NCBI GenBank assembly: GCA_027306505.1
Contig: DAHUZP010000001.1
Location: forward strand, 120,932 to 184,931
Direction of reading: 5' to 3'
Length of the DNA stretch: 64,000 nucleotides
Source of the DNA: Thermoplasmata archaeon
Lineage (GTDB): Archaea; Thermoplasmatota; Thermoplasmata; Lutacidiplasmatales; UBA184
The notes under the pieces were generated by a model that worked only from the letters and a program-made list of their open reading frames with translations, ran no database searches and was not told where the DNA came from. Shown piece by piece: positions 2,968 to 64,000 of this stretch. Positions within the stretch are counted from its first letter, which is position 1. The number at the start of each line of letters is the position of its first letter. A program made the position numbers and the translations under genes.

Positions 2968-3081
2968 TCTGGGAGCCGAAGGGGGGTGCCTTCCCCCCGG
3001 CCGTCGCCGCCCCTTCTCCCCTTGGGGCCGGGTCACCCTGAGCGAGGGAGGGCCGATGACGCCCATCCTCAGGCATAGCAA

Positions 3082-20687: not shown

Positions 20688-21371
20688 ATGCCTTCCCCGG
20701 TCGTGGTCGAGGGACGCGACGTCTGGAAGGTCTACGCTTCCGAGGCGGGGGACGTCCCGGCCCTCAAGGGCCTCGAGGTCGCGATCCGCAAGGGCGAGAT
20801 GGTGGCGGTCATGGGGCCTTCCGGCTGCGGGAAGACCACGTTCCTCAACTGCTTCTCCGGTCTCGACGACATCACCAAGGGCACGATCCGAATCGAGGGA
20901 AAGGACCTGCGCAACCTCTCGGACAACCAGCGCAGCGAGTACCGCGCGCTCCGCATGGGGTTCGTGTTCCAGGCCTACAATCTGCTGCCCGTGCTGACCG
21001 CCCAGGAGAACGTCGAGCTGCCGCTGCTCGTCGCGGGGGTTCCGCCCAAGGAGGCGCGACAGCGCGCGGTCCTATGGTTGAAGGAGCTCGGCCTCAAGGG
21101 CCGGGAAGAACACCGGCCGAGCGCGCTCTCCGGTGGGGAACAGCAACGCGTCACGCTGGCCCGCGCCCTCGCGAACCGGCCCGCCATCGTGTGGGCCGAC
21201 GAACCGACGGGGAACCTCGACGAGGAGAACAGCCGGGCGGTGATGGAGCTCCTGCGGGAGCTCAACCGCGAGCACCACCAGACCTTCGTCGTAGTTACCC
21301 ATGACCCGTCCGTCGCGGGGGCCTGCGACCGGACCATGAGGATGCGAGATGGCCGCATCGTCACGGACTGA
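20688..21371 (+). CDS. ABC transporter ATP-binding protein, MacB/LolD type
   Basis: It has Walker [10 protein letters not shown], a Q-loop, the signature [15 protein letters not shown], Walker [13 protein letters not shown], and the length is 227 aa. Confidence 0.85.
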
Positions 21372-24300
21372 ACCCACGAGGTCCGGGAGGGCCCGCTCCG
21401 GGCGCTCCTCCAGCGGAACGCTCCCCGGTAAGGCCTCCGATGCCCAACGCCGGGGCCGGCTCGCGAACCAGGTCCTGCTCATCGGGACCGCCCTCGGGCT
21501 CGTGATCATCGGGACCAGCCTTTGGCTCGGCACGACCGCGGGCAGTGAGCAGGCGGTGACGGCGCTCTCCACCCTGGGGGCGGGGGACCCCGTCGTGGGC
21601 CTCCTCGTGCTCATCGTGGTCATCGTCGCCCTCTTTTCCCTAGTCCTCGGGCTCAAGGACCGCGTCATCGCGAAGATCGGACTGCGGAACGTTTCGAGGG
21701 CGCGCACCCGGACGGTGGTCCTGCTCTTCGGCCTCCTCATCGGAAGCACGATCATCTCCTCGTCCCTGGTGATCGGGGACACCGTCAACACCCTCTCGGT
21801 CCACTTCACCTACATCGCGGACGGCACCGTGGATGAAGCGGTCTGGGCACCGGCGCAGTCACTCGGCGGCCTCGGGACCTCCTCGCTCACCTACGCACCG
21901 TTCCCTTCCAGCGTGTTCACCTCGATGAATTCGAGCTTGCCGGGGAGTCCGGAGGTCTCGGGCCTCGCCCCCATGCTGCTGGGGACCGCCTCCGCCTTCG
22001 ACCTCACGCGCCAGGTCGCCCAGCCGGGTCTCACCCTCATCGGGGCGGACGCCTGGACCAGCGCGACCCTGGGCGGCTTCACCTCGGTCAATGGCTCGGC
22101 GGCCAACGGCCCGTTCTCGGGCCAGGTGCTCCTCAACCCGACCGCGGCCTCGGAGCTCTCGGCGTCGGTGGGTGACCGGATCAGCCTCAGCGGGGCGGCC
22201 GCCTCCCCCACGACCTACACCGTAGCAGGGATCGTCCGTGCGGACACACGTGGAGGTTTCCAGGACGGGGGCTTCGGCGACGTCTTCGTCAACCTCGCCG
22301 GCGCTCAAGCCCTCTCGGGCATCCCGGGCCGTGTGAACTTCATCGCGGTGACCAACGTAGGAGGGATCAGCGGAGGACCCTCCCACACCCACACCGTCTG
22401 GCCCCAGCTCAACGCGTCGCTCGCCTCGGCGGGAGGTCAGCGGTACGGCTTGACCGTCCACTCCATGCTGCAATCGGACCTGCTCTCCGCCGAGGCCAAT
22501 TCCGCCTCCCTCACTCAGCTCTTCCTCGTCCTCGGGCTCTTCTCCATCGGAGCCGGCTGCGTCCTCATCGTCGGGATCTTCGCCATGCTCGCAGAGGAGC
22601 GACGCGGAGAGATGGGGGTCGCCCGGGCGGTGGGGATGCGCCGAGGGCAGCTCATCCGGGCCTACTACTTCGAGGGCCTCGCCTACTCCGCCGGCTCCGC
22701 CCTCCTCGGGACGCTCCTGGGCGTGGTCGTGGGCTGGGGGATGATCCAGGCCTTCGCGAACGTCTTCGGTGGGGGCGGGGGCAGCGAAGCCCAGGCGATC
22801 GTGGAATCGTTCTCCTTCACCACCCGGAGCCTCGTCCTGGCCTACGCGGCGGGGTTCCTGCTCACCCTGGGGACGGTCACGGTCACCTCAGCCTACGTGA
22901 GCCGAATGAACATCGTTCGGGCGATCCGTAGCCAGCCGGAGCTCGTTGAGCGGGCCCGCTCCCAGCGCCTGCTGCTCGCCTCCGGGGTCCTCCTTGCCCT
23001 GCTGGGCGCGGCCCTCTACCACGTGGGTGCGCCCTCCGGCACGGACATGGACATCGGCTACCTCGGGGTGAGCCTCCTGCTGCTCGCGGTCGGCCTGATC
23101 GCGGCCTTCCGGCTGCCGTTGCGCTGGACCTTCTCCCTATCGGCGGTGGGGCTGCTCATCTTCTGGTCGGACCTCTCGCTGCGGAACGACCTCTTCCCGG
23201 GCCCGCACACCGGGACCATCTTCGTGTTCTTCCAGGAGGGGGTCTTCCTCATCCTCGCCGCGGTCATCCTCTATGTCTTCAACTCCGACCTCATCGTTCG
23301 GGCCCTGACCGGCCTCTCCCGGAGCGGGTCGAGGAACCTCCCGGTGGTGCGCCTCGCGTTCTCCTATCCCGCCCACCGCAAGTTCCGCTCCGCGATGACC
23401 ATCAGCATCTTCGCGATGGTCCTGTTCACGATCACCGCCATCGCGGCGATCGGCAACGGGATCTCCTCCGGGGTGTCGACCAGCATCGCTACGCAGTCCG
23501 GAGGTTACGAGTTCTACGGGGTCTCCCCGAACCCGATCACCGACATGTCCGGAACCGTCCAGCAGAACGCGACCCTGAGAGCGGACGTCTCGACGTTGGT
23601 CCCGTTGTACTCGGGAGGGGTGATGGTCAACGCACGTCCAAGCGCCCCGTGCAGCGCCACCAACATGTGCTTCGGCTACGGCGCTGCAGCGGCGCCCACC
23701 GGCCCTTCGGTCCCCACCTGGCAGAACTTCTATGGCACCAACCACTTCAACTTCACCGCGACCGCGCCGGGGTACTCCCCCTCGCAGGTCTGGCAGGCGC
23801 TCGAGTCGGACCCGAACGTCGCGGTGGTCGATGGGAGCTTCCAATCCAACATCATCTCGGAGTTCCAGGGCAACGGACATCCCGGGGTACGCGCCGGGGA
23901 CGGCATGAACCTCACGAGCCTCGCTTCGGGCTCGACCGTCACGGTCCGGGTCCTGGGCATCCTCAGCGAGCAGTCCGTCCCGGTCGTGCTCGTCAACAAC
24001 CAGACGATGGTCGAGACCCTGGGATACTCCACGCAGAACATCTTCCTCTTCACCGCTGCCCCCGGGGTTTCGGCACGGACGGTCATCCAGAACTTCCAGA
24101 CCCACTTCTTCGCCGAGGGGCTCCAGGTCTACGATTTCGCAAGCGAGCTGTCCAACGCTTTGCAGTTCACGGACGCGTTCATCAATCTCCTCGAGGTCTT
24201 CGTGGCCCTCGGCCTGATCGTCGGCATCACCTCGCTCGGGATCCTCGCCCTTAGGGCGGTGGTGGAGCGGCGCACCCAGATCGGGGTCGTCCGGGCGGTG

Positions 24301-24570
24301 GGGTTCCGGCGCTCTCAGGTGCTGGCGGTCTTCCTGACGGAGTACTCCTTCCTCGCGCTCATGGGCATCGGCATCGGAGCGGTGATGGGCCTCGTGCTCG
24401 CCTACAACCTGAACCAGGCGATCGGGGGCTTCTTCTCCTTCGCGATCCCGTGGGCGAACCTGGCCTTCGTCCTCGCCACGAGCTACGCCCTGACCCTCGT
24501 CGCGACCGGGATGCCGTCGTTCCGCGCCTCGCGCATCCCTCCTGCCGAGGCGATCCGCTACAGCGAGTGA
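21349..24570 (+). CDS. ABC transporter permease with tandem FtsX-like domains and large extracytoplasmic domains
   Basis: Two 4-TM FtsX/MacB modules are each preceded by a long soluble domain, and the ORF overlaps the upstream ATPase gene. The true start may be downstream of 21349. Confidence 0.75.
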
Positions 24571-25980: not shown

Positions 25981-28911
25981 ATGCCAAAACGGAAGTCCCC
26001 TCCCCGAACGCTCCCCGCTGCACCGGACGGTCAGGTGGAGGGCTCGTGGCCGGGGTCCTCCGACGGTAGGGGGGCCTCCTCCCGCTCCGCAACCTCGGCC
26101 CAGAGCGCCTCTGCCCCCGCGGAGGAGACCTCCTCGAGGCGCCGCGCCCAGATGACCGTCCCCACCGTGGTCGACATGCGGAAGGCGCGGGAGGAGGCGC
26201 TCTTCCAGCTTCGGCTCGGCCGCCAGTCCCTCGCCTTCGGGTTCCTGGTCGGTCTGCTCCTGGTCGTCGATGCCGCCATCGCGCTCTTCGTGGGCACTTC
26301 CTCGCTCTCCTCGGTAGGCACGGTCGGTGCCTTCCTCCAGTCCGTCATCAACAACCAGCTCGCGCTCGCCCTACCCCTCGCGGCGGGGCTCTTCCTCTCC
26401 ATCGCGGTCTTCCTGGAGAAGTACGACACCTACGGGTTCTGGCCGTTCGAGGACCACTTCGCGATCACGATCGCCTCCCTCGCCCTCTCCGTCGCCCTCG
26501 CGGTGATCTACGCCCTCCACCTCGTCAACCGCGGTCCGGACATCCTCAAGACCCTCTCCTGGACCGTCTACGTGCTGGTCTTGATCGCCATCTCCCTCGG
26601 GATGGTCTCCCTGGGCACGACCTGGAGAGGGTGGCCCTGGCGGAAGGTCGCGAGCCTGGTGTTCGCGGTGCTGCCTCCGGTCCTCGCGGTGCCGCTCCAG
26701 TACTCCCTTGCTTCGCTCAACAGCCTCGGGGCCCCCGGCGGTTATGGGGCGTTGAACCTCTCGCTGTCCATCAGCTTCGGCTTCGCAGCCTTCCTCTACA
26801 TCGCGAGCGGTGCTCAGCTGCACCTCATGGCGAGCGCGACGCGCGCGCAGGAGCGCGAGGTGGTCGCCGGTAGCCACGAGAAGCTCTTCGCCCTCGCCCA
26901 GGAGCTCAGCACCCGGAACGAGGCCGCCATCTTCCGGGAGGAGGCGCTCTCCCGCCGCGAGGCCGACGTGGAGGCCCAGGAAGGGACCCTCGTGGAGCGG
27001 GCCCGTTTCCTCGAGGACCGCCGCCAGGAGCTCGAGACCCTGGACCGGCACCTCCGCACGAAGGGGGACGAGGTCGGTGGGCGCGAGCAAGCCCTGCTAC
27101 CCCGTGCCGCCGAGGTCACCGCGGCCGAGGCCTCCCTGAAGGAGCGGAACGCCCAGGTCACGGCCCGGGAGCATGAGATGCAAGCCGGCTTCCAACGGCT
27201 GGGGGACCGGGAGAGGAACCTGCTCGAGCGCGAGCAAGCGACCCGTCAGAAGGAGCTCGAGCTCCAGAACCGGGTGGCCGAGGTCGCCCGCTCGGAGGCC
27301 CAGGCGCGCGCGGTGGAGCAGAGCGCCCAGCAGCGTCTCGCTGAAGCTCAGCAACGCTTTGCCGCGGCGACGGGCCGAGAGGCCGAGATCCGTGCCCGGG
27401 AGTCCAGCATGCAGCTCCCGCCCGATGCGAGGGCTCGTGTCCAGACGAAGGAGGCCGAGATCGCACGGCGCGAGGCCACGATCGAGTCCCAGCGGGCGGA
27501 GATCCAGGACCGGATCGGAGCGGCCTCCGTCAAGGAGCAGGCAGCGGAGCGTCGCCGCGTCGAGCTCCAGCAGGTCGCCTCGACCATCCTGGAGCGGGAG
27601 AAGAACCTCGCCTCCCGAGAGGCCGCCCTCACGGCGAAGGAGAAGCAGTACGAGATCGAGCTCGACCTCCTCAAGGGTGCGACGAAGCGCCACGAGGACG
27701 AGATCCGAAAGTACTTCGACGCGACCAAGAAGAGCACGCTGGTCGAGAGCCAGTCGAGCCTCATGATGAGCCAGCTCAAGGAAAAGGAGACGGGGGTCTC
27801 CGTCCGGGAGCAGAAGGTCCAGGAGCGGGAGCGCGAGATCCAGGGACGGAGGGAGGAGCTCGAGCGCCAGACCCAGGAGGTCACCGCTCAGCGGCGGTCC
27901 GCGGAGGCCCAGTTGGCGGACCTTCGCATGCGCAGCACCCGGCTGGAAGAGGCGGCGGCCCGCCTCGCCCCGAGCCGCAGCGAGGCCGACGCCACCCTCA
28001 CCCGGGCCCTGCAGGACCGGGAGAAGGCGATCGAGCTACGCGAACGCCAGCTGGCCGATCGGGAGCAGAAGGTCCGTTCGATGCAGTACGAGCGGGACCG
28101 CCAGGCGACCGCGGGAGCGGTCGCACAGGAAGAGGCGGGATCGCTCACGGGGGTCGGTCCGACCCCCTCGCTCCGGCGCCCCGGGAAGGTCTCGACCGGG
28201 ACCCCCCGCTTGGACGACCTGCTCCTGGGGGGCTTCCCCGAGAAGGGACATGTCGGGTTCGTGGGACCGGCCTTCGTGGGGAAGGAGGTCGCGATCTACG
28301 CCTTCCTCGCCGAAGGGCTTCGCAAGGGGGAGGGCGCGCTGGTCATCGCCGCGAGCCGGTCTCCCTCCGAGACCGCCCGCGAGATGGGCGTCGTGATCCC
28401 TTCGCTCATGGAGTACGAGGGCGCTGGGCGTCTCATCTGGATCGATGCCTCCAACCCGGCGGGCGTACCGGCAGGCGATGCCCGTAGCAAGGCCGGGACC
28501 ACCGTCAAGGGTCCGGGGGACCTCGTCGGCATCCTCCAGGCGGTGAGCCGCCACTCTGCCGAGCTTGAGAAGACGAGGGCCGGCTTCCGGGTGGCGTTCC
28601 TCTCCCTCTCCTCGTGCATCACCCAGACGGACGAGCGGGGTGGCGCAGCCTTCGTCCAGAACATCCTGGGCATCCTCCGCCCCAAGGGGAGCCTAGGGGC
28701 CTACAGCATCGATCGGGGCATGCACAGCGACCAGCAGGCCCAGGCGATCATCTCGCAGATGGACGGGGCCGTCGAGTTCCGCACGGAGCGGGGAAAGACC
28801 CAGCTCCAGGTCGTGGGGCTGGGAGAGGTCCAGGCACGCCAGTGGGTGGACTACCGGTTCACGCAGCGCGCGCTCTCGCTCGGGAGCTTCACGCTCGAGA
28901 GGATCCGTTAG
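25981..28911 (+). CDS. Membrane protein with about 8 N-terminal TM helices, a ~400-aa coiled coil and a C-terminal KaiC/RecA-like domain with a degenerate P-loop
   Basis: Hydrophobic helices lie at the N-terminus. A long heptad-like Glu/Arg/Ala/Gln segment follows (REEALSRREADVEAQEG...). The C-terminus reads GTPRLDDLLLGGFPEKGHVGFVGPAFVGKEVAIYAF, with GxxxxGKE instead of GKS/T. A better start may be the ATG near 26152. Confidence 0.6.
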   Translation: MPKRKSPPRTLPAAPDGQVEGSWPGSSDGRGASSRSATSAQSASAPAEETSSRRRAQMTVPTVVDMRKAREEALFQLRLGRQSLAFGFLVGLLLVVDAAIALFVGTSSLSSVGTVGAFLQSVINNQLALALPLAAGLFLSIAVFLEKYDTYGFWPFEDHFAITIASLALSVALAVIYALHLVNRGPDILKTLSWTVYVLVLIAISLGMVSLGTTWRGWPWRKVASLVFAVLPPVLAVPLQYSLASLNSLGAPGGYGALNLSLSISFGFAAFLYIASGAQLHLMASATRAQEREVVAGSHEKLFALAQELSTRNEAAIFREEALSRREADVEAQEGTLVERARFLEDRRQELETLDRHLRTKGDEVGGREQALLPRAAEVTAAEASLKERNAQVTAREHEMQAGFQRLGDRERNLLEREQATRQKELELQNRVAEVARSEAQARAVEQSAQQRLAEAQQRFAAATGREAEIRARESSMQLPPDARARVQTKEAEIARREATIESQRAEIQDRIGAASVKEQAAERRRVELQQVASTILEREKNLASREAALTAKEKQYEIELDLLKGATKRHEDEIRKYFDATKKSTLVESQSSLMMSQLKEKETGVSVREQKVQEREREIQGRREELERQTQEVTAQRRSAEAQLADLRMRSTRLEEAAARLAPSRSEADATLTRALQDREKAIELRERQLADREQKVRSMQYERDRQATAGAVAQEEAGSLTGVGPTPSLRRPGKVSTGTPRLDDLLLGGFPEKGHVGFVGPAFVGKEVAIYAFLAEGLRKGEGALVIAASRSPSETAREMGVVIPSLMEYEGAGRLIWIDASNPAGVPAGDARSKAGTTVKGPGDLVGILQAVSRHSAELEKTRAGFRVAFLSLSSCITQTDERGGAAFVQNILGILRPKGSLGAYSIDRGMHSDQQAQAIISQMDGAVEFRTERGKTQLQVVGLGEVQARQWVDYRFTQRALSLGSFTLERIR

Positions 28912-32779: not shown

Positions 32780-33748
32780 CTATCGGGAGAGCTTCGAGAG
32801 CATCCGGCCGGCACGGAAGAGGTGGTGCAGGGCGTAGCGCCGCTTGAACACCGTCTCGTCCCGGTCGACCTCGAGGGAGATGAGCGTGAGGTCGTCCATC
32901 TTGAGGACCCCGCCTCCCTGGAGGGGGACCAGCATCTCGAAGAGACCGTCCGCGACCTCGCTGAAGCGCTCGCGGTCGAGGAGCACCCCGGGCCACTGGA
33001 TCAAGAACTTCGCAAGCGCGTCTGTCGCTCCCCACAGGTGCGTCCCGGTCTCGAGCCTCCCCTCCTGCAGGAGCGGGGTGGGGGTGGAGCCCTCCTGGGT
33101 GCTGACCAGAGGAGGGGTGGTGTCGAAGTCCGACGCCTTCTCTACGGGCCAGGAGAGGAGCTTCGCCTTCGAGTCCCCGGAGTTCCGCAACAGGCAGGAG
33201 TCGCCCACCGTGATCGCGCGCCAGGTACCCTCGATGGGGTTCGCCTCGATGCCGAGGAACGTCGCCCAGGCGCCCTGGTCCCTCTTGCGGACCGCGCGCG
33301 CGTTCGCGAGGTCGAGCAGCGGTTCGGTCTCCTTCCTCCACAGCTGGGAGAGCTCGGGGAGAGCGGCGAGGAAGCTGTCGGCGGAATCGGCGGGGAGCGA
33401 GCCCGCGACGAAGGCGTCCGTCAGGATCTGGGCCCACATGCCGGACCACGAGGACTCGGTCGCCCCGTCCGAGATCGCGACGCGGATGATCTCCTCCTTG
33501 CGGCGGAACGTCCCCGCTTCGAGCACCCGATGCTCGTCCGCCGAGGCGACCCGGACGTACTTGTCGAGCGGCGAGTGCGCGACCCGGTCGTCACACTCGG
33601 CGAGAGGCCCCTTCGAGATGACCATGCTCTCGAAGAAGGTGAAGAGAGGGGCGGATTTGCTCGGCATGCCGCAGATTTCCTCTGGGGAACGGGACCTCTG
33701 TAGCACCCGGTGGACCGAGCGCTGTTGGTCCACGGAGGACGATGCCAC
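32780..33748 (-). CDS. PP2C-family (PPM) Ser/Thr phosphatase-like protein
   Basis: PPM motifs are present: VAISDGATES (DG), ITVGDSCLL (GDS) and KMDDLTLISLEV (the DD metal-binding motif near the C-terminus). The motif after the first DG is degenerate. Confidence 0.6.
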   Translation of the reverse strand: MASSSVDQQRSVHRVLQRSRSPEEICGMPSKSAPLFTFFESMVISKGPLAECDDRVAHSPLDKYVRVASADEHRVLEAGTFRRKEEIIRVAISDGATESSWSGMWAQILTDAFVAGSLPADSADSFLAALPELSQLWRKETEPLLDLANARAVRKRDQGAWATFLGIEANPIEGTWRAITVGDSCLLRNSGDSKAKLLSWPVEKASDFDTTPPLVSTQEGSTPTPLLQEGRLETGTHLWGATDALAKFLIQWPGVLLDRERFSEVADGLFEMLVPLQGGGVLKMDDLTLISLEVDRDETVFKRRYALHHLFRAGRMLSKLSR

Positions 33749-33880
33749 CTACAAGAAGCCGTAGGTAGGCGCGAATCCTCCCGCGACCGGTTCCCCTCAA
33801 GGAGCGCCCCTCCGGTCGGCCTACGCGCCCTAGCGGGTGCCCCACTGTCCCATGCCGTTCCCATTCGGCCGAGGGCACCA

Positions 33881-33886
33881 TTTATA
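33881..33886 (+). promoter_or_regulatory. TATA-box-like element (TTTATA) about 34 nt upstream of the vWA gene start
   Basis: It is the only AT hexamer in the 170-nt divergent spacer between the PP2C and vWA genes. Confidence 0.3.
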
Positions 33887-33919
33887 GGGGGAAGATGTTC
33901 GGAAGCTCGAGGGATACCC

Positions 33920-34774
33920 TTGGTCGAACCCTACACCGAAGAAGTCAGCGTCACCCACAACCAGCCTGGTTGCATCATCTTCCTGATTGATCAGAGCGGT
34001 TCGATGAAGGCGGAGATCCGGGGCATGCCCGGGGTCCGCAAGTGCGACTTCCTCGCTGACCAGATCAACGGCATCCTCGACGACCTGCTCCTGCGCTGCA
34101 CGAAGAACAACAAGGTGGTCCCCTACTTCCACAGCCAGATCATCTCCTACGGGTTCCAGGGCGACCTCGTCGCCCCGATCGTGGGCAGCCAGCAGGACCC
34201 GCTCATCCTTCCGCTCGACCGGATGGCGGAGTGGACCGACCAGAACAACGGCTGGGCGGACGGGCGCCTCCAGGTGATCCGACCGGTCGCCGAGGGCCGT
34301 ACCCCCATGACCCAGGCCTTCGCCCTCCTCGAGGAGCCGGTGAAGGAGTGGGTGGCGACCAACCCCAACAGCTACCCGCCGATCATCCTCAACATCACGG
34401 ACGGCATCCCCGAACCCCGTACCCAGGAGAACTGGCAGGCGCTCGTGGACATCTGCACGCGCCTCAAGCGGGTGACCAACGCGAACGGCTCGATGGTCCT
34501 CATCTTCAGCCTGCACATCGGGGACTCCGACACCTTCCCTCCGGCGATCTTCTGCAACGAGCAGGAGGCGCCCCAGACCCCGGAGGCCCAGTTGCTCTTC
34601 CGCTGCGCGAGCCACCTGCCGCCATCGATGGCGGCCGAGGCCCAGCGCGTGGGGCTCCCGGTCTCCCCGGGCCTCCCTAAGTGCTACGGGTACAACATCG
34701 GTGGCAAGGAGCTCATCAAGATCCTCCAGGTCGGGACGCGGACGGGGCCCATGGTGGCCCCCCCCGTCGCCTGA
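33920..34774 (+). CDS. von Willebrand factor A (vWA) domain protein with a MIDAS motif, TerY-like
   Basis: It reads IIFLIDQSGSM (DxSxS), with downstream Thr and Asp residues (ILNITDGIPE) and a Rossmann-like alternation. The start is placed at the in-frame TTG at 33920, because the supplied ORF overlaps the PP2C gene. Confidence 0.65.
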   Translation: MVEPYTEEVSVTHNQPGCIIFLIDQSGSMKAEIRGMPGVRKCDFLADQINGILDDLLLRCTKNNKVVPYFHSQIISYGFQGDLVAPIVGSQQDPLILPLDRMAEWTDQNNGWADGRLQVIRPVAEGRTPMTQAFALLEEPVKEWVATNPNSYPPIILNITDGIPEPRTQENWQALVDICTRLKRVTNANGSMVLIFSLHIGDSDTFPPAIFCNEQEAPQTPEAQLLFRCASHLPPSMAAEAQRVGLPVSPGLPKCYGYNIGGKELIKILQVGTRTGPMVAPPVA

Positions 34775-34913: not shown

Positions 34914-37900
34914 CTAGGGTCGGTTGGGCAGGGGAGGGGAAGCTCCTTCGTCCGCCCCTGAGACGACCCTTGGGGGAACGGGAGCCCGCTCCTTGGGCGA
35001 TGAGGACCGGGCCAACCGGGGGGCGGAGAGCTTTTCGCCGAACTTCGCGCCGAGCGGCGTCAGGGAGATCCGCTCCCCTCCGCTCAGCCGGTCCCGGTCC
35101 CTCATGACCAGTCCCGCGTCGGTGAGAGAGGCGAGCACGATGTAGAGACGACCGTCGGGGATCCTCGTGTCGCGCTGAAGCTCCCCGGCGGGAAGAGGGC
35201 CCACCCCGAGCGCGCCTAGGACCAGGTGGTAGTCGGTAATCTCCTTCGACCCCAGCTTGCGGAGCAGCGCGGAGAAGACCTCGTCCCCCTCCGTAGCAGC
35301 TGGGACGGTGGGGGCGGCGGCCTCCGCCGCAGCGTCCATCGGTGACCAGGCACTGGTCGCCGACATGGGTGTCGCGGTGGCCCCCTCGGCAAAGGCCTCC
35401 GAAGCCTCGGGAGCGGCCTCGGGGGGCATCGGCGTGCTCGCGGGCAGCACCTGGGCCTCGGGGAACAGCGGGGATGGCGGCGGGGCGCCTACGAAGGCGG
35501 CCGACCCTGCAGGGTCCGGTCCCTCCATCGGAGGCCCTGGGACGACCTCCTGCCCTGGGAAGAGCTCCTCCGACGGCGCCTGCTGCCGTGCACGTCGAGA
35601 GCGCGCCGCGAAGAGGACGAGGGCCGCGACCACCAGCGCAACGAGGACGAGCAGGAGGGCCAGCCCGACGAAGAAGGGCAGGCCCAGCAGCGTCGAGCCG
35701 GGGGAAGGTGCCCCTCCGCTTCCGCCGCCCCCCCCACCACCACCGCCTGTCCCTCCGCCGGGGCCACCACCGACAAGGGCCGGAGCGACCACGATCGCCA
35801 GGGAACTCGTGCCGGCGGTCCGTCCGGCGGCATCGGTGAACCAGGCGCGGTAGGTGTAGGTCCCGGGGTGCAGGAAGGTCGGAGTGGTCCAGCGAAGGGC
35901 GGTCTGGGTGGTGTTGGTACCGTTCTCGGACCAGACCACGCCGTAGGGCGAGGTGCCTCCCCAGGCGGAGGCGTTGAGCACCACCGAAAGGCCGACACGG
36001 GACGAGGTCGTGTTCGCCGTGGCGAAGGCACGGAGCTGGACGATCCACGGGAACCCAACCACCCAAAGCTCGTGGTGGGCCGATACGTGCTCCCCCAGCG
36101 TGTCCGTCTCTTCGAGCGTGAAGGTGTAGTTCGCCTCTCCCGAGGGCGTGAAGGACAGCGAGGAGAGGGAGGGGTTCGTCGTGAGGTTCGTGCTCGAGTT
36201 GAGGAGCCAGAAGTAGCTCACCGGCCCGTATCCGCCCTTCACCGACGCGGAGATCGAGACCGGGACCGAGGGCAGGGTCCCGTTCGCCGAGAAGGTGAAG
36301 TCCGGGCTCAACGGGGCGACCACCTGCAGGGTCACCTGGGCGACCGCCGAGCTCCCCCGACTGTCGTTGGCCCAGGCCGTCGCGTTGTACCAGCCCGGTG
36401 AGGTGTACCTGTGGACGGGAGTGGTGCCCGCCCCCGCCTGCCCGTCGCCGAACCTCCAGGAGATCAGGACGGGGGCCGTGCCGCCGGTGGTGACGGAGGA
36501 GAACTGGAAGATGAGCAAATCGGTGCCCCGCGTGGGGCTCGCCGAGACCTTCAGGGTCGGGAGCGAGTTCACGACCAGCGAGACCGGCCCGGCGAAGGCC
36601 CGGGAGCCGAAGGTGTCGTTCAGCTGGAGCCGGATGGAGTAGGTCCCGGGGGCGGACGGACGGCAGGGCAGGCTGCTCTGGTTCGCGCTCGCGCAGCCGG
36701 GGGGGAGCCCCTGCCACCAGAAGGTGTAGATGCCCGAGCCCCCGGAGGCGTTCGCCTGCAAGAGCGTCGACGATCCCACGTCCACCGTGGAAGGGCTCGC
36801 TCCGAGCCCCGAGAGCACGGGGGGAAGCCCCACCAGCACGGTCTCGTTGACGAGGGCGGAGGCGCCGAGCGTGTCGTTCGCATAGAGGCGGACGATGTAG
36901 CTTCCGATGGTCGTGAAGGTGTGGGAGACGTTGCCTCCTGAGACGCTAGGACTGCCGTCCCCGAACCGCCAGGTCGAACTGACCGTGCCCGTCCCGGGGT
37001 GCGCGAAGCTCGAGAAGTACACCGTGAGCGGTGCCGGTCCGCCCAGCGGGTGGGCGGTGACGTTCGCGGTCGGCCAAGGGTCGACCAGGATGAAGAGGGT
37101 CGCGCTCGCCGTCACCGCCCCGTCGGTGACCGTGACGGTAGGCGTGTAGGAGCCGGCCGCGTTGGGAGCGCAGGTGAAGATGGGCGCTCCCGTGTTCGGG
37201 CACCCCGGGGGCAGACCCGACCAGGTGAACGAGGTGAAGATCCCCGAGCCGCCCGAAGCGACCGCGCTGAACGACGCAATCTGGCTCGCATCGATGATGA
37301 GCGGAGAGACGCTCGCCGTCACGGTGAGGGAGGCCGGGAGGCCGTAGCTCCACATGTCCCCCAGGGGCACCGTGTTCCAGCCCCCGAAGATGAGGACGTA
37401 GCCGTCCGCCTCATCATAGGCGACGTTCGGCCCGTCGCGAGGCGGTGGTGCGACCGAGCCGGTGACGTTGGTCCACGTTCCGGCCTTGTAGGCCCAGGTG
37501 TCGTTGCCCCACTGCGAGCATGCCGACCCCGTGACGAAGGCCAGGCATCCGCCGAAGAGGTAGACGAACCCGTCGCCGCGGTCGTACACCATGCCGGGGA
37601 AGGAGGCCGCGGGGGGGTCCCCCGAGGGCTGCGTGCGGTTGGTCCAGGTCCCCGCGTGGTAGGACCAGATGTTGTCCGAGAGCCAGCACTGGAGCGGGTT
37701 GCTCGTGGTCTGGACGCAACCGTCCACCATGAGCACGTAACCGTCGGAGGCATCGTAGGCCAGGCCCTCCTGGGACCTCGCGGGGGGGCTCGAGGGGGAG
37801 GAGGTCTGCGGCGTCCACTGCCCGCCGACGAACGACCAGGTGTCGCCCAGGTTCCCGTTGGAGTTGCCTCCGCCGAAGAGCAGGGCGTAGCCGTCGGAGG

Positions 37901-39716
37901 CGTCCCAGGCCATCTCCATACAGCAACGCGCGGAGGGAGAAACCGTCGGAGCGAGGGCGGTCCAGACGCCGGCCCGGTAGCTCCAGGTCGCGCCGAGGGG
38001 TCCGTTGGACTGCGTCCCTCCACCGAACATGACCACGTACCCATCGTAGAAGTCGTAGGTCATCGCGGCGCAGCACAGGCCGCCCGGCGGCGAGGAGGAG
38101 CTCACCAGGTGCCAGCTCAAGTTCTGGTAGGTCCAAGTGGCGGCGAGGTGGGTGTTCCCCGTCGTTCCGCCACCGTAGAGGAGCACGTAGCCGTCCGCAT
38201 AGTCGTAGGTGATCGCGGCGTTGACCTCCTCGGTGGGGGTCCAGGAGGTGGGCAGCAGTCGCTGGTACACCCCTGGCACCACCTGGGTGCCGAAGAACTG
38301 CCACGTGTCGCCGTACAGGGTCGAGCCGAGGGTGCCCCCGAAGAGGACCACCAGCCCGTCGGTCGGGTCGAAGGTCATCGCGGCCTGCGACCGGAGGAGG
38401 GGAGGGGTTCCCACGAAGGCGGTGATGTTGGTCCAGTACCCCCGCTTGAACGCCCACGTGTCCGAGAGCCCGGACGCGGTCGCGGGCTGGCCTCCGAAGA
38501 GCAGGACCTCACCCTCCACCGCGTCGTAGGTCATCGAGAGCCCTTGCCTGGGCGATGGGGCGTGGGGGGAGTGCCAGGTCAGATCGGTCCAGGTGTCGTT
38601 GCTGAAGGTCCACGTCTGGTTGTCCGAGATACAGGGGCCCTGGCGCGGGCCCATGCAACCTCCAAAGAGCAGGGCGTACCCGTCGGCCGAGTCGAAGGAC
38701 ATGTCGAGGCCCATGTGCGGCGGAGGGGAGACGCCGCCCCGAAGGCTTCCCGTGATGTTCGTCCAGACCCCGCCCTGGTACGTCCAGGTGTCGTTGTAGT
38801 AGCTGGTCGAGCCACCGCCGAAGAGCAGCACTTTCCCGATACCGGCATCGAAGGTCATCGCCGCATCGAAGCGAGGGCCCGGGTTGCTGGTGGGGCTGAG
38901 CTGGGTCCAGATCCCTCCGGCGTAGCGCCAGGTCTCGGAGCTGAAGGTGCCTGAGTTCGCGCCACCGAAGAGCAGAACGTACCCATCCGCCGCGTCGTAG
39001 GCCATCGAACTGCAGCAGAAGATTGGGGGATGGGTCCCCGTGACCTGGGTCCAGGTGTTCGAACGATAGTACCAGGTCTGCTGGACGAGGCCCGCGCCCG
39101 TGCTCCCGCCCCAGAGCAGCACGTAGCCGTCATGGTTGTCATAGACCATGTCGGCGCCTGAGGTCGCGGGGACCGCCCCCGAGGGCGAAGTGGACTGCCA
39201 GATCGGAGCGGTGCCCGAAGGCCGATAGTCGGCGAGCTCGGTCGACCGGGAGGAGCAGTGGAGGCTCCCCGTTCCCGACCCGCAGGTCCACGGCACCCCT
39301 CCCGCGGGCCCGCCACCGGATTCGAGCGAAGCCGTCGCCGAGCGCAGGGCCTGCTCCGGACCGAGAGGGGGGGGTCCGTTCTCGGGGGGCTCGGGAGCCG
39401 CCTGGGGTAACGACACCGATGGGGAGAGCTTCGGCCCAGAGGCCATGTGCGGGGCCCCTACGAGCAACAGGAGGCAGAGGACGCCCACGACGACCGCGAG
39501 AGCGGAGAGCGGGCTTGAACGGGGGCCATGAGGGAGCGGTTTCGGCGCGGCTCCACCTCCTTCCTGACTCCCCGTGCCCGGGGGGGACCGGCTGACCGCT
39601 CGAGGGCCGGACCACGGGCGGGGGGACTCACCCGCCTCACTTCGGAGGAGCGCTGCTCCGTTCTCGCGGGGCTTGTTCCTCAGGTAGTGACGCGTGGACG
39701 GACCGACGATCTCCAT
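34914..39716 (-). CDS. Giant type-I membrane protein: a signal anchor, about 14 Kelch-type beta-propeller blades, four PKD domains, one TM helix, a Pro/Ala-rich cytoplasmic linker and a C-terminal TrmB-like winged helix
   Basis: The blade motif DGYVLLFGG...W.Y/F...W is repeated. PKD motifs of the form WxFGDGxxxxGxxxxHxYxxxGxY are present. The TM helix is LLGLPFFVGLALLLVLVALVVAALVLF. The C-terminus reads ITDYHLVLGALGVGPLPAGELQRDTRIPDGRLYIVLASLTDAGLV. Confidence 0.7.
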   Translation of the reverse strand: MEIVGPSTRHYLRNKPRENGAALLRSEAGESPRPWSGPRAVSRSPPGTGSQEGGGAAPKPLPHGPRSSPLSALAVVVGVLCLLLLVGAPHMASGPKLSPSVSLPQAAPEPPENGPPPLGPEQALRSATASLESGGGPAGGVPWTCGSGTGSLHCSSRSTELADYRPSGTAPIWQSTSPSGAVPATSGADMVYDNHDGYVLLWGGSTGAGLVQQTWYYRSNTWTQVTGTHPPIFCCSSMAYDAADGYVLLFGGANSGTFSSETWRYAGGIWTQLSPTSNPGPRFDAAMTFDAGIGKVLLFGGGSTSYYNDTWTYQGGVWTNITGSLRGGVSPPPHMGLDMSFDSADGYALLFGGCMGPRQGPCISDNQTWTFSNDTWTDLTWHSPHAPSPRQGLSMTYDAVEGEVLLFGGQPATASGLSDTWAFKRGYWTNITAFVGTPPLLRSQAAMTFDPTDGLVVLFGGTLGSTLYGDTWQFFGTQVVPGVYQRLLPTSWTPTEEVNAAITYDYADGYVLLYGGGTTGNTHLAATWTYQNLSWHLVSSSSPPGGLCCAAMTYDFYDGYVVMFGGGTQSNGPLGATWSYRAGVWTALAPTVSPSARCCMEMAWDASDGYALLFGGGNSNGNLGDTWSFVGGQWTPQTSSPSSPPARSQEGLAYDASDGYVLMVDGCVQTTSNPLQCWLSDNIWSYHAGTWTNRTQPSGDPPAASFPGMVYDRGDGFVYLFGGCLAFVTGSACSQWGNDTWAYKAGTWTNVTGSVAPPPRDGPNVAYDEADGYVLIFGGWNTVPLGDMWSYGLPASLTVTASVSPLIIDASQIASFSAVASGGSGIFTSFTWSGLPPGCPNTGAPIFTCAPNAAGSYTPTVTVTDGAVTASATLFILVDPWPTANVTAHPLGGPAPLTVYFSSFAHPGTGTVSSTWRFGDGSPSVSGGNVSHTFTTIGSYIVRLYANDTLGASALVNETVLVGLPPVLSGLGASPSTVDVGSSTLLQANASGGSGIYTFWWQGLPPGCASANQSSLPCRPSAPGTYSIRLQLNDTFGSRAFAGPVSLVVNSLPTLKVSASPTRGTDLLIFQFSSVTTGGTAPVLISWRFGDGQAGAGTTPVHRYTSPGWYNATAWANDSRGSSAVAQVTLQVVAPLSPDFTFSANGTLPSVPVSISASVKGGYGPVSYFWLLNSSTNLTTNPSLSSLSFTPSGEANYTFTLEETDTLGEHVSAHHELWVVGFPWIVQLRAFATANTTSSRVGLSVVLNASAWGGTSPYGVVWSENGTNTTQTALRWTTPTFLHPGTYTYRAWFTDAAGRTAGTSSLAIVVAPALVGGGPGGGTGGGGGGGGGSGGAPSPGSTLLGLPFFVGLALLLVLVALVVAALVLFAARSRRARQQAPSEELFPGQEVVPGPPMEGPDPAGSAAFVGAPPPSPLFPEAQVLPASTPMPPEAAPEASEAFAEGATATPMSATSAWSPMDAAAEAAAPTVPAATEGDEVFSALLRKLGSKEITDYHLVLGALGVGPLPAGELQRDTRIPDGRLYIVLASLTDAGLVMRDRDRLSGGERISLTPLGAKFGEKLSAPRLARSSSPKERAPVPPRVVSGADEGASPPLPNRP

Positions 39717-39824
39717 GCCGCTGGTTCCCCTCGAGCGGCGGAACCTCGTGACAGGGGGATGAAAGGTCGTGCAAGGGGGACCACACCTCGATGCACCGAT
39801 TGCTAGGACGTGTCACCCACGTCG

Positions 39825-41195
39825 CTAGCCGGAAGGCTGGTGGGGTCCGGGCGCGGGGCCCCCAGGAGGAGCGGGGTAGCCCCCGTACGCGGCGAACTGT
39901 CCCCGGTGCGGGAAGTCGACCCGGGGCGGGGGCTCGCGGTCGATGGCCGCCCTCGCATCCGGGAGCAGGAGCTGGCTCAAGGGCAGGCAGGTGGCCAGAT
40001 GGTCGTTGCACCCCTTCACGAGGATACCGGCGAGCCGCCGCACGCCGGCATGCGGGTGGCCGAGCAGCCGGACGAGCTCGCTCTTCCTGTTGTAGAGGGA
40101 AGCCCGCTCGAAGTCACGGGACGAGAAGGCGGGCTTGGTCCGGCCCACCATGCGCCAGAACTGCGGGTCGACCCGGTTCAAGGTGAGGAGCAGCGTCAGG
40201 ACGAGGAAGGCGAAGGAGTCCCCTATCGCTCCGCGGTCGGGCTTCTTGGGCCATTTCGCGCGTCCACTGATCACGTCGGGGTGCTGGAACTCGGGCTGCC
40301 CGACGATGGGGGAAGGGGGCAGGTCGACCCCACGGATCCACAGGCTGTCGTAGTCGACGAGGTGGATGTCGTCCTGGCTGTCGATGAACAGGTTGTCGAA
40401 GCTGATGTCGCCGTGGGAGATCCCCAGTTCCTGGAGATGGTCCGCGAGGGAGAGCACGTTCTGGGTGAGGCGGCGGTACCTCCAGTCGCGCTCGGCCGGC
40501 TCCAGGGTGTCGAGCATCCGCATGTGCTCGTCGAGCGAGGTCCCGGAGGCCCGCTCCATCACGAGGGCGGGGAACCACTCGGCCCGCTTCTGGCCGTTCG
40601 CCCCGGTGAACATGATGTGGGCCCCTTGGTGATAGTACCAGGTCCCGACGAAGACCCCCTTGAGCGAGGAGGAGGTCTGCCAGACCCAGCGCGTGATCGC
40701 AGAGTAACGGGCGTCCGCTGCCGGTAGCCACTGGGTGTGGTAGAGCCGAAGGATCATCGGCGTGGGGTTGTTGTGGCCGAAGAGCAACTGGAAGACGATG
40801 GCGTATCGCCCGCAGGAGCGCCAGGGTGGGCGCGAGGGGTGCGGGAAGGTCATGGGCCGGAAACGGACGTCCAACGGGATTGCCCCCCGCAGGGGGGGAG
40901 CGGCCGTGTGGGGGAAATGGGTCAGCGCCTGGACCACCTCGGAGGGGGAGGGCATCTCCCGACCTGGCACCTGGACCGGTCCCTTCCGACGGAAGAGCCC
41001 CCCTCCGAGCCCCCGGCGCTTCTTCGGCGGAGCGGCAGGTCGGGGGCCCGCGGGCCTCACGGCCGCCGGCGGGGGCACCGGTGGCGGACCGGCGGCCGGT
41101 GGCCCGGCCGGAGGGTGCCCGTAGGGTCGTGCGGGCGGACGTTGCGGGGGTCCCCCCGCAGCGGGCTGCCCGGTCGCCTGTTGCCCCGCGGACAT
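39825..41195 (-). CDS. Atypical protein-kinase-like protein with a Pro-rich N-terminus
   Basis: A catalytic-loop-like ISHGDISFDNLFI (HGD...N) is present, and LVDYDSL sits at the DFG position. The first ~70 aa are a Pro/Ala/Gly-rich low-complexity region. Confidence 0.55.
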   Translation of the reverse strand: MSAGQQATGQPAAGGPPQRPPARPYGHPPAGPPAAGPPPVPPPAAVRPAGPRPAAPPKKRRGLGGGLFRRKGPVQVPGREMPSPSEVVQALTHFPHTAAPPLRGAIPLDVRFRPMTFPHPSRPPWRSCGRYAIVFQLLFGHNNPTPMILRLYHTQWLPAADARYSAITRWVWQTSSSLKGVFVGTWYYHQGAHIMFTGANGQKRAEWFPALVMERASGTSLDEHMRMLDTLEPAERDWRYRRLTQNVLSLADHLQELGISHGDISFDNLFIDSQDDIHLVDYDSLWIRGVDLPPSPIVGQPEFQHPDVISGRAKWPKKPDRGAIGDSFAFLVLTLLLTLNRVDPQFWRMVGRTKPAFSSRDFERASLYNRKSELVRLLGHPHAGVRRLAGILVKGCNDHLATCLPLSQLLLPDARAAIDREPPPRVDFPHRGQFAAYGGYPAPPGGPAPGPHQPSG

Positions 41196-50677: not shown

Positions 50678-52189
50678 TCAGAAGCTCGTCCCGCTGGTGA
50701 AGGTGAACGATCGGGAGACGAGGGGCGAGAGGACGGGGGAGGTGAAGGCCCGTTCGTCGGCGAAGCAGCGCCGGTCCTCGCCCACCGCCTCCACGCCCGC
50801 AAGCGTCTCCAAGATGCTCTCGGTGAAACGTAGGTTCCGGATGGGGTGCTGGACCTCTCCGTTCTCCACCCAGTAGGTGCCGTCCCGCGTCATCCCGGTG
50901 ATGATCGTCCTGCCGGGGTGCACGGCCCGGACGTACCAGAACCGGGTCACGACGATCCCCTGCTTGAGCTCCTTGAGGAGCTCGGTCCGGTCGTGGTCCC
51001 CCGGGGCCATCGTGAGGTGGAGCGGGAGGGGCCCCATCTCCCCGAAGTGCGCCTCAGGAGGAAGGGCATTGCTCGTCGAGGGCACCTTCGCCCGGGAGGC
51101 GGTCAGGTGGTCGTGCGCCGCCCCTTGGGCCACTCCCTCGTGGAAGATGGGACGGGCTCGGTGCGGCATGCCCTCGAAATCGATCGAGGAGGGGACCCCC
51201 ACGGAACAGAAGGGGTCGTCGGTGAGCTCGAAGCTCGGCGCGACCAGGGACCTTCCACGGCCTTCCACGAGGAAGCTCCAACCTTCCTCCACCGCGTGGG
51301 CCCCGAGGCCGAGCCAGGCGAGGTGACCCATGAGCTCGGAGACCGCGGGTCCCATGAGCAGCACCCGGTACTTGCCCGGCTCCACCGCTCGCGGGGCGAC
51401 CCTGGGGGTCGCCGCGACGGCCTCCCGGGCCAAGGCGACGAGGTCGACCTTCGCGGGGTCCCAGTGGGCCCCCTCGGACCATCCCGAGACGGGAGGGTCA
51501 CGATCGGGCAGCTCCGTGAGGAGCGAGGCCTGGGCGGCGCTCCGGAGGAACCCGCGGCGGAGGCCGCGAGAGTTCGCGACCGCGAGCAGGCTCGCCCCCT
51601 GGTTGAACACCCCGGAGATCCGGGCCGGGCCGAGCGACTCCTCCACGACCGAGAAGGCGCCCGCAAGACGGTCGCCGAGCCGCTCCAGGTCCTCGTCCAG
51701 CACGCGACGGGAGAACGGCACCGAGGGAGTGGGGCCCTTCACGTCCTCCGCGAACCCGGGGAAGCCTTCGACAGGCGGCGCGACCGACGCCAGGGCCTTC
51801 GCCCCCTCGGCGAGTCGGCGCAGTCCCTCGGGCGTTAGGTCCGTGGTCGTCGCGACGCCCAGCCGACCGCCGCTCAGCGCGACACGGAGAGAGACCGCCT
51901 TGGTCAGCTCCGCATGGGGCTGGTAGAGACGGGAGTCCGCGCACCGCAGCGTGATCCACCGGTCGTCGTAGTACCGGGCGTCCGCGTCCCCCCCGACGAG
52001 GTCCAAGACCCGGTCCAGCACCTCGAGGCCAGCCTTCAGGTCGGGTTGGGAGGGGTCCTCGCGAGGGGAGGGGCGTGCTCCGCGCGGGGCGGGCCTGGAA
52101 CGGGCGGGAGCGGGGCGACGCGAAGAGCGCCGGGCCCGGTCGAGCGCCGGCTTCTTGGGGGCCGCGCGCCGACGGGCGACAGGGCTCAT
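50678..52189 (-). CDS. pmbA: TldD/PmbA-family metalloprotease (PmbA/TldE paralogue)
   Basis: The PmbA_TldD fold is present. The start is placed at the ATG that overlaps the tldD stop by 4 nt (ATGA). Confidence 0.75.
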   Translation of the reverse strand: MSPVARRRAAPKKPALDRARRSSRRPAPARSRPAPRGARPSPREDPSQPDLKAGLEVLDRVLDLVGGDADARYYDDRWITLRCADSRLYQPHAELTKAVSLRVALSGGRLGVATTTDLTPEGLRRLAEGAKALASVAPPVEGFPGFAEDVKGPTPSVPFSRRVLDEDLERLGDRLAGAFSVVEESLGPARISGVFNQGASLLAVANSRGLRRGFLRSAAQASLLTELPDRDPPVSGWSEGAHWDPAKVDLVALAREAVAATPRVAPRAVEPGKYRVLLMGPAVSELMGHLAWLGLGAHAVEEGWSFLVEGRGRSLVAPSFELTDDPFCSVGVPSSIDFEGMPHRARPIFHEGVAQGAAHDHLTASRAKVPSTSNALPPEAHFGEMGPLPLHLTMAPGDHDRTELLKELKQGIVVTRFWYVRAVHPGRTIITGMTRDGTYWVENGEVQHPIRNLRFTESILETLAGVEAVGEDRRCFADERAFTSPVLSPLVSRSFTFTSGTSF

Positions 52190-63928: not shown

Positions 63929-64000
63929 AGCTCCCGGGAGGTTGTGGGACGAATGGTGGTAGGGCGAGGCCGACAGGACGGACGCGCGGGCTCCGGCATC

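Follow-up and report, generated by a model that had tools for sequence, protein, structure and literature searches.

Can a surface protein of an archaeon carry its own transcriptional output domain on the inner side of the membrane? The question is raised by an open reading frame (ORF) in a 64,000-nucleotide stretch of DNA from a Thermoplasmata archaeon (contig DAHUZP010000001.1), which we call the window and whose positions serve as coordinates throughout. The ORF (34914-39716, minus strand) codes for a protein of 1600 amino acids, hereafter the giant, in which Kelch repeats and PKD domains are followed by a hydrophobic segment and a long tail. A sequence-only reading of this DNA had proposed that the tail is cytoplasmic and ends in a winged helix-turn-helix (wHTH) domain resembling those of TrmB and MarR, making the protein a candidate membrane-tethered transcription factor. 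After following up this proposal, we tentatively regard the giant as a transmembrane one-component regulator that would present a minimal winged helix on a flexible linker.

The giant and its C-terminal module

The segment at issue comprises about 90 amino acids near the C-terminus (residues 1476-1565; 35022-35291, minus strand). This candidate winged-helix module can be divided into a leading helix, a helix-turn-helix (HTH; GPLPAGELQRDTRIPDGRLYIVLASLTDAGLV), a wing (MRDRDRLSGGERISLTPLG) and a short trailing helix. An 81%-identical ortholog of the giant is encoded on a fully syntenic Logan contig (L001:4150-8928), and its module is 90% identical to that in the window. When the module of the window copy is isolated, its best Pfam match is TrmB (E 6.4e-5, 23.2 bits), and the only other matches are MarR_2, DprA_WH and PadR. 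The ortholog matches MarR_2 (6.2e-5), HTH_20, TrmB, PadR and HTH_IclR. In both orthologs, the isolated module matches no Pfam families other than winged-helix ones, and the best domain-specific NCBIfam matches of the giant are TrmB equivalogs. The matched profile positions are 21-58 of 68 for TrmB and 8-56 of 61 for MarR_2.

Structural databases point in the same direction. A profile built from the two orthologs matched five chains in the PDB, all five of them MarR/ArsR regulators aligned in one register (GP..eL...t.i....l..vl..L...GLv.R..d....r.i.LT..G). This register takes in the recognition helix together with the helix that precedes the turn, the Arg-bearing wing and the LTxxG motif. For example, GLVMRDRDRLSGGERISLTPLG aligns in register to 2nnn, 2hr3 and 2eth, with the MarR-type wing Arg and LTxxG, at E-values of 0.2-2. 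None of ten composition-preserving shuffles of the module matched a winged-helix family, their best match (E 0.096) being to unrelated families. In comparison with the L001 ortholog, the module also has the lowest ratio of nonsynonymous to synonymous substitution (dN/dS 0.17) of any region of the protein, and its low-complexity flanks evolve 2-6 times faster at nonsynonymous sites. On these profile and substitution statistics, residues 1476-1565 probably adopt a genuine winged-helix fold.

The ORF that carries the module is real as one piece. Because the GC content of third codon positions (GC3) stays at 0.72-0.98 in every 50-codon block, tail included, the frame is continuous, which argues against a fusion by frameshift. 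The gene is present in four independent assemblies, each with the same tail, and two of these copies (P0123 and P0124) carry 1-2 substitutions. A 100% identical database copy (P0004) is only 1510 amino acids long, and its NCBI gene call begins at M91. This model leaves out a basic N-terminus and a first hydrophobic segment (39444-39716, minus strand), both of which are conserved. The L001 frame likewise extends without interruption to a MEIVGPST start, and the hydrophobic segment is kept there, and therefore we consider the public gene model too short and the long ORF with its N-terminal anchor correct. Translation starts at the ATG at 39716, with GAGGGG located 8-13 nt before it. Without the region M1-M90, the ectodomain would have no export signal.

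Read from its N-terminus (all coordinates on the minus strand), the giant begins with a predicted cytoplasmic segment (residues 1-69; 39510-39716) that is basic (pI 11.2), rich in Pro, Arg, Ser and Gly, and opened by the conserved MEIVGPST. The first transmembrane segment, TM1 (residues 70-92, LSALAVVVGVLCLLLLVGA; 39441-39509), reaches a 19-residue Kyte-Doolittle mean of 2.84, is conserved in L001, and is predicted to be a signal-anchor or an uncleaved signal segment. The first part of the ectodomain (residues 93-800; 37317-39440) consists of a Pro-rich spacer and approximately 12 Kelch repeats with recurring DGYVL and W-x-Y motifs, which probably form two beta-propellers. Over approximately residues 190-800, Pfam matches include Kelch_KLHDC2_KLHL20_DRC7 (6.5e-42), Kelch_4 (4.8e-25) and Beta-prop_ATRN-LZTR1 (5e-22), and dN/dS relative to L001 is 0.26. 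The second part (residues 801-1342; 35691-37316) holds 5-6 PKD/Ig-like domains, where the sequence-only reading had counted four PKD domains, and ends in a poly-Gly stalk (1316-1342). Here Pfam matches over approximately 800-1310 include PKD_4 (2e-25), PKD (1.9e-20, in four stretches), K319L-like_PKD and Big_13, and dN/dS is 0.41. Both the Kelch and the PKD domains score far over the Pfam cut-offs.

The second transmembrane segment, TM2 (residues 1343-1372, LLGLPFFVGLALLLVLVALVVAALVLFAA; 35601-35690), has a hydropathy of up to 3.33, is followed by RSRRAR, and is 80% identical in the ortholog. Hydropathy thus moves the single helix that had been placed near residue 1290, and also reveals TM1 behind its basic 69-residue N-terminus, which had been missed. 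The tail after TM2 comprises 228 residues rather than the approximately 300 first estimated, and its description as Pro/Ala-rich was accurate (38 Ala and 34 Pro in 235 residues). It starts with a Pro/Ala/Glu linker (residues 1373-1475; 35292-35600) that is acidic (pI 4.05), 67% identical to the ortholog with eight indel positions, and has a dN/dS of 0.36. Only low-complexity families of Pfam and NCBIfam match this linker, and it is presumably disordered. The module then follows, including the peptide ITDYHLVLGALGVG (residues 1493-1537) to which the proposed wHTH had been assigned. The protein closes with a basic Pro/Arg/Ser-rich end (residues 1566-1600 plus stop codon; 34914-35021) that is 54% identical to the ortholog. 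Its dN/dS is approximately 0.98 overall, and its last 8-11 residues, ending SPPLPNRP, are conserved in the ortholog.

Several features agree with an extracellular Kelch/PKD region and a cytoplasmic tail, as had been supposed. All 26 N-X-S/T sequons of the giant lie between TM1 and TM2, as do 18 of its 19 Cys residues. The remaining Cys is inside TM1, and both termini are free of Cys and sequons. Positive charge is found on the predicted cytoplasmic flanks, namely the N-terminus with its pI of 11.2 and the RSRRAR after TM2, and the ectodomain flanks carry 0-1 basic residues. This distribution fits a protein with both termini inside and the ectodomain outside, which would cross the membrane twice unless TM1 is cleaved. 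A PGF-CTERM/archaeosortase signal at TM2 (GLPFF) was considered and rejected: NCBIfam PGF-CTERM has no match at E <= 1 in the giant, and TM2 is followed by 228 residues, a tail far too long for a signal in which only a few basic residues come after the helix.

Relatives of the tail and its possible roles

Homologs that keep the C-terminal module are exceedingly rare. A full HMMER scan of 1.84 billion representative proteins returned one homolog of the tail, the ortholog (P0001), and no other. Two further matches (P0002 and P0003) were rejected as artefacts because they are long repeat proteins aligned over 5-7 short stretches. A word-index search with the whole tail, and with a 100-amino-acid query of the module alone, found no homologs in a collection that does contain the giant, as its recovery with a full-length query demonstrates. 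Degenerate-pattern scans for TM2 plus tail found no relatives in genome_contigs or metagenome_contigs. Searching the window and 62 loci by tblastn with the tail, and the 8263 ORFs of the same sequences by hmmsearch with a profile of the module, recovered only the giant itself and its ortholog, and for this reason a profile could not be built up iteratively. The module is known from two species-level lineages only.

The ectodomain, in contrast to this tail, belongs to a family with more than 1095 homologs at E <= 1e-20 in Thermoplasmata, the best non-orthologous Kelch/PKD matches being 28-40% identical to the giant. We compared tail lengths among the best 120 ectodomain matches with a simple transmembrane filter. 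Tails of at least 90 residues were found in 20 of these 120 proteins, a few of which are misplaced transmembrane calls. Nine of the long-tailed proteins (P0044, P0045, P0051, P0052, P0053, P0062, P0085, P0095 and P0101) are giants of 1950-2150 amino acids with tails of 206-224 amino acids after the transmembrane segment. AlphaFold 2 (AF2) models these tails as two modules of three helices and two strands (H-H-H-E-E) with a predicted local distance difference test score (pLDDT) of 75-82. Their Foldseek matches are proteins with tandem winged helices, namely AlkX/YcaQ, cullins, SelB, RPC62, ESCRT-II, ScpB, MarR and Fur. Three other proteins (P0013, P0016 and P0022) have Pro-rich tails with one or two zinc ribbons (CPYCG...CxxC) and a terminal LPPPL. 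The tails of other Kelch/PKD giants thus bear tandem winged helices or zinc ribbons independently, and a cytoplasmic module is a recurrent theme among these proteins, whose modules are not demonstrably homologous.

Three side observations concern relatives of the giant. Terminal LPPPL or QPPPL sequences occur on P0013, P0016, P0022 and P0063, and the giant and its ortholog end in SPPLPNRP (34917-34940); judged by these letters, the ends may represent a short motif for docking that these proteins share. In Thermoplasmata, a genome at a greater distance carries a Kelch/PKD homolog near S19e (L011, 183-3887, minus strand) that shares a motif after TM1 (LESAASSLSGGAGP..W.C) and a C-terminal transmembrane segment with basic flanks, and this locus ends 50 residues into the tail. 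A second PKD giant (1-3000, plus strand) is cut by the start of the window. It contains 10 or more PKD-like repeats, a Thr/Ser stalk and a transmembrane helix, and its cytoplasmic tail of approximately 130 amino acids is acidic and rich in Glu, Ser and Thr. It was rejected as a paralog with the same tail, since no recognizable module follows its membrane helix.

What could the module do for the giant? A number of observations weigh against a DNA-binding regulator, and they include all of the family scores, which lie below curated cut-offs. TrmB (PF01978, gathering cut-off 25.6 bits) scores 16.6 bits with the full protein, 23.2 bits with the isolated module and 16.5 bits with the ortholog, and MarR_2 (PF12802, cut-off 27 bits) scores 15.5-23.5 bits. 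The individual PDB E-values given above are likewise weak. AF2, supplied with an alignment of two sequences, returned for the module a beta-rich model (pLDDT 51, predicted template-modeling score 0.39) that is meaningless and unusable. The proposed TrmB/MarR-like wHTH is upheld by concordant sub-threshold Pfam and PDB matches and by the low dN/dS, which make its fold a likely one. The module is bounded by the Pro/Ala linker and the Pro/Arg tail and lacks the N- and C-terminal dimerization helices of MarR, a protein of approximately 140 amino acids. After the wing come only approximately 35 low-complexity residues with no further Pfam or NCBIfam match, and the coiled coil and the sugar-binding effector domain of TrmB are absent. 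Because the cut-offs are missed and the family-defining dimerization and effector parts are absent, the module is not a member of TrmB or MarR proper. Its charge is also unhelpful, with a pI of 5.8, a net charge near zero, and a single basic residue in the putative recognition helix (PDGRLYIVLASL). Furthermore, one tail homolog in 1.84 billion representatives offers no covariation or phylogenetic support, and the tail is at most 50 amino acids long in 63 of the 85 C-terminally anchored giants among the best 120 matches, which means that the ectodomain works without a tail module. Aligned by hhalign with the paralogous tandem winged-helix tails, the module reached a probability of 25% over the HTH only, an alignment so weak that we claim no homology. 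Finally, many winged helices bind proteins and are not transcription factors, among them those that Foldseek ranks highest for the paralogous tails (cullin, ESCRT-II, ScpB and RPC62).

Many of these same features favor the main rival explanation, namely that the module truly has a winged-helix fold but does not bind DNA. It would instead be a handle for protein interaction or oligomerization in the cytoplasmic part of an adhesin or S-layer-like giant, coupling it to intracellular partners for positioning, turnover, export control, or signaling via another protein. A neutral to acidic module with few basic residues in its recognition helix, no dimerization or effector domain, and membership in a protein family most of whose members need no tail module would all suit such a role. 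The same is true of the paralogous tandem tails, whose best matches (AlkX/YcaQ, cullins, SelB, RPC62, ESCRT-II and ScpB) are winged helices other than transcription factors, and of the zinc ribbons and C-terminal PPPL/PPLP-type motifs of other giants, which suggest docking by peptide motifs. However, the module matches exclusively families of DNA-binding regulators (TrmB, MarR, PadR, HTH_20, IclR and ArsR) and keeps the MarR-type wing Arg and LTxxG. The consensus wHTH of TrmB, moreover, is itself approximately neutral in charge. With these points on both sides, we judge the handle somewhat unlikely.

A more radical doubt is that the tail is a disordered cytoplasmic appendix with no folded domain, whose resemblance to winged helices arises from chance or composition. 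The sub-threshold scores, the low-confidence AF2 model that is not a winged helix, and the fruitless word-index and contig searches are what this explanation would predict. Yet Pfam E-values of approximately 6e-5, already corrected for library size, were obtained independently in two orthologs, the shuffled sequences never matched a winged-helix family, the five PDB matches belong to one fold class, and no other part of the protein is as well conserved as the module or under purifying selection as strong. A chance resemblance is accordingly improbable in our view. An artefact of fusion, in which an assembly chimera or a frameshift has joined a surface-protein gene to the gene for a small regulator, is more improbable by far. 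Small TrmB/MarR genes are common in archaea, and the NCBI gene model is already imperfect at its other end. Nevertheless, the identical architecture occurs in one uninterrupted frame in four assemblies from different data sets, GC3 is continuous over TM2, linker and module, and no stop codon or start-codon context lies between TM2 and the module.

If the giant is indeed a transmembrane one-component regulator, a plausible mechanism can be sketched. A glycosylated surface protein would present its approximately 12 Kelch repeats, together with its 5-6 PKD domains, to the outside on a glycine stalk. In the cytoplasm, approximately 100 residues of flexible Pro/Ala/Glu linker would bear a single minimal MarR/TrmB-like winged helix. 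Engagement of the ectodomain by a ligand, a surface or cell contact might change the oligomeric state of the giant and bring two tails together, so that the winged helices could bind DNA as a dimer. Such pairing would be needed for dimeric binding because the winged helix has no dimerization helices of its own. DNA could be bound while the tail is tethered, given a linker reach of tens of nanometers, or after the tail is cut off. DNA binding, activation by dimerization and a release step are proposed here by analogy with known families only.

The gene neighborhood

The gene directly upstream of the giant (39825-41195, minus strand) codes for a Ser/Thr-kinase-like protein that matches PADLOC STK_OB (1.4e-16) and, below cut-off, Pfam Pkinase (4.6e-6). 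The STK_OB match is confined to the kinase part (profile positions 42-236 of 562), with no match to the OB or zinc-ribbon extension. Downstream of the giant and convergent to it lies a TerY-like vWA gene (33710-34774, plus strand; PADLOC TerY 7.1e-33) with the MIDAS motif DQSGS and a true start that is likely near 33920. Beyond this is a gene for a PP2C-like phosphatase (32780-33748, minus strand; PADLOC PP2C 1.1e-16, Pfam PP2C_2 0.0034), whose 86%-identical copy at the related locus L002 matches PP2C_2 at 9e-6. Co-location of a TerY-like vWA protein, a PP2C phosphatase and a Ser/Thr kinase defines the TerY-P triad (PMC10542128). The three predicted genes considered here, which are co-located in this manner, constitute a TerY-P-like defense/signaling triad.

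Comparison with related genomes reveals how the giant relates to this triad. In the window genome and in L001, the triad is split by the giant. In L002 (4145-7665) and L003, which represent the nearest genomes in GTDB (84% S19e identity), the three genes are contiguous, no ortholog of the giant is present, and a different PKD protein with a 60-amino-acid tail lies between PP2C and S19e. The kinase is 89% identical in L002, where no giant comes after it. Because the triad genes adjoin each other without the giant in these genomes, the giant is a lineage-specific insertion into the triad, or was lost from the others. The sequence-only reading had suggested that the output of the giant could be gated by proteolysis or by the upstream kinase-like protein. 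We rejected the kinase as a dedicated partner of the giant because it has its own conserved partners in a triad that is intact without the giant, and gating by this kinase is therefore unsupported.

The spacer between the kinase gene and the giant (39717-39824, 108 bp) is 89% identical to that of L001. Compared with a dS of 0.32 for the gene, it is clearly less diverged than synonymous sites. The spacer also contains an inverted repeat, GACGTG-N5-CACGTC, located directly 3' of the kinase stop codon and imperfect in L001. Among the triad proteins, the TerY-like protein is 100% identical to the L001 copy and 98.9% identical to the L002 copy, at 84% identity for S19e in L002, a pattern that points to unusually strong constraint or recent exchange of one gene.

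With regard to a release step, no S2P- or rhomboid-type intramembrane protease is encoded within the 64-kb window, where the only peptidases seen are PmbA/TldD (50678-53643). We know of no archaeal consensus cleavage site for regulated intramembrane proteolysis (RIP). The window also encodes eIF-6, S19e, L31e and a PDCD5-like protein that binds double-stranded DNA, genes that mark it as archaeal, and loci retrieved with S19e put it among uncultured Thermoplasmata. Elsewhere in the window, a 1073-amino-acid FtsX-type permease (21349-24570, plus strand) adjoins an ABC ATPase, and a protein of 976 amino acids (25981-28911, plus strand) has a KaiC-like ATPase at its C-terminus and matches DUF7090 weakly. 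The latter protein is conserved in L001, where it lies beside the ribosomal-protein cluster. The last segment (62001-64000) has a GC content of up to 0.75, compared with a window mean of approximately 0.69, and a GC skew down to -0.17.

Comparison with known systems

Signal transduction across the archaeal membrane is poorly understood, and to our knowledge the membrane-bound regulators of the ArnR type known from archaea have no large ectodomain. A wider group of one-component proteins, the transmembrane transcription regulators (TTRs; for example ToxR, CadC and TcpP), is common in archaea at approximately four per genome, and its members are predicted to relay signals from outside straight to DNA (PMC10269533). 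They are defined by at least one predicted transmembrane region along with a DNA-binding domain that is likewise predicted (PMC10269533). The giant has strongly hydrophobic segments at residues 70-92 and 1343-1372, and its predicted cytoplasmic module is recognized as a DNA-binding domain only below curated thresholds. Like TTRs, the giant would thus be one polypeptide in which an HTH-type domain in the cytoplasm is combined with a membrane anchor and an extracytoplasmic domain. In classic TTRs, however, the DNA-binding domain is N-terminal and the periplasmic sensors are small, whereas the candidate domain of the giant is at the extreme C-terminus, where a Kelch/PKD ectodomain of 1250 residues and another pass through the membrane precede it. 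The TTR census mentions neither Kelch nor PKD (PMC10269533), and because the candidate domain is sub-threshold in Pfam, such a census would not list the giant. The architecture had been called unusual, which holds for a tail with one detectable homolog but less so for its general plan, given that archaeal TTRs are common and other giants carry cytoplasmic winged-helix or zinc-ribbon tails.

If the tail does bind DNA, the giant would be an example of direct wiring between transcription and an adhesin-like ectodomain of 1250 residues, and TTR censuses that rely on Pfam thresholds would miss such proteins. What would be new, provided the module is functional, is a transmembrane regulator in the form of a giant glycoprotein, with an output domain that forms its extreme C-terminus and escapes those thresholds. 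If it does not bind DNA, the tail remains of use as a conserved and defined handle on the cytoplasmic side of surface proteins that form an abundant class in Thermoplasmata, and could serve to look for their intracellular partners. In either case, the related giants with tandem winged-helix or zinc-ribbon tails make the question testable on a family instead of on one orphan. We found no paper in the literature on Kelch/PKD giants with cytoplasmic winged-helix tails.

The archaeal membrane-bound HTH regulators that have been studied experimentally are ArnR and ArnR1 of Sulfolobus acidocaldarius, which are phosphorylated by the Ser/Thr kinase ArnC in a network that includes a vWA protein (PMC6396743). 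ArnR has an N-terminal HTH, cytoplasmic HAMP and sensor domains, and two C-terminal transmembrane helices with no large ectodomain, so that the giant shows the opposite polarity, and no sequence relationship between ArnR or ArnR1 and the giant was detected. Moreover, unlike in the ArnR network, the kinase, vWA and PP2C genes beside the giant are conserved without it. In sub-threshold alignments, the HTH and wing sequence pattern of the module and its register match MarR_2 (PF12802) and TrmB (PF01978). In contrast to the giant, which is predicted to be membrane-tethered and whose scores remain under the gathering cut-offs, those regulators are soluble and possess the dimerization helices of MarR or the coiled coil and sugar-binding domain of TrmB that the module lacks.

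In its outer part, the giant conforms to the Kelch/PKD surface proteins of Thermoplasmata, since its Kelch repeats and PKD domains score over threshold and are flanked by a signal segment at the N-terminal side and a transmembrane anchor at the C-terminal side. Most of these proteins have a tail of 7-50 residues, and a minority have long tails with unrelated modules such as tandem winged helices or zinc ribbons. This pattern across the family is suggestive, and the architecture itself is striking. Purely as an analogy, the giant also recalls Notch and SREBP in its large ectodomain, its single pass to the cytoplasm, and its intracellular module of a nucleic-acid-binding type on a flexible tail. 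Notch and SREBP are eukaryotic proteins with no homology to the giant, and the likeness to release by RIP is one of analogy alone. It is a speculative and rather improbable extension of these ideas that Thermoplasmata have an unrecognized class of Notch-like outside-in receptors, comprising Kelch/PKD giants with interchangeable tails, a single MarR-like winged helix in this case and tandem winged helices or zinc ribbons in paralogs, that would bind nucleic acid as output modules and be activated by clustering driven by the ectodomain or released by proteolysis. If such a class does exist, these wall-less archaea would have gene expression wired directly to contact at the cell surface or to the recognition of glycans.

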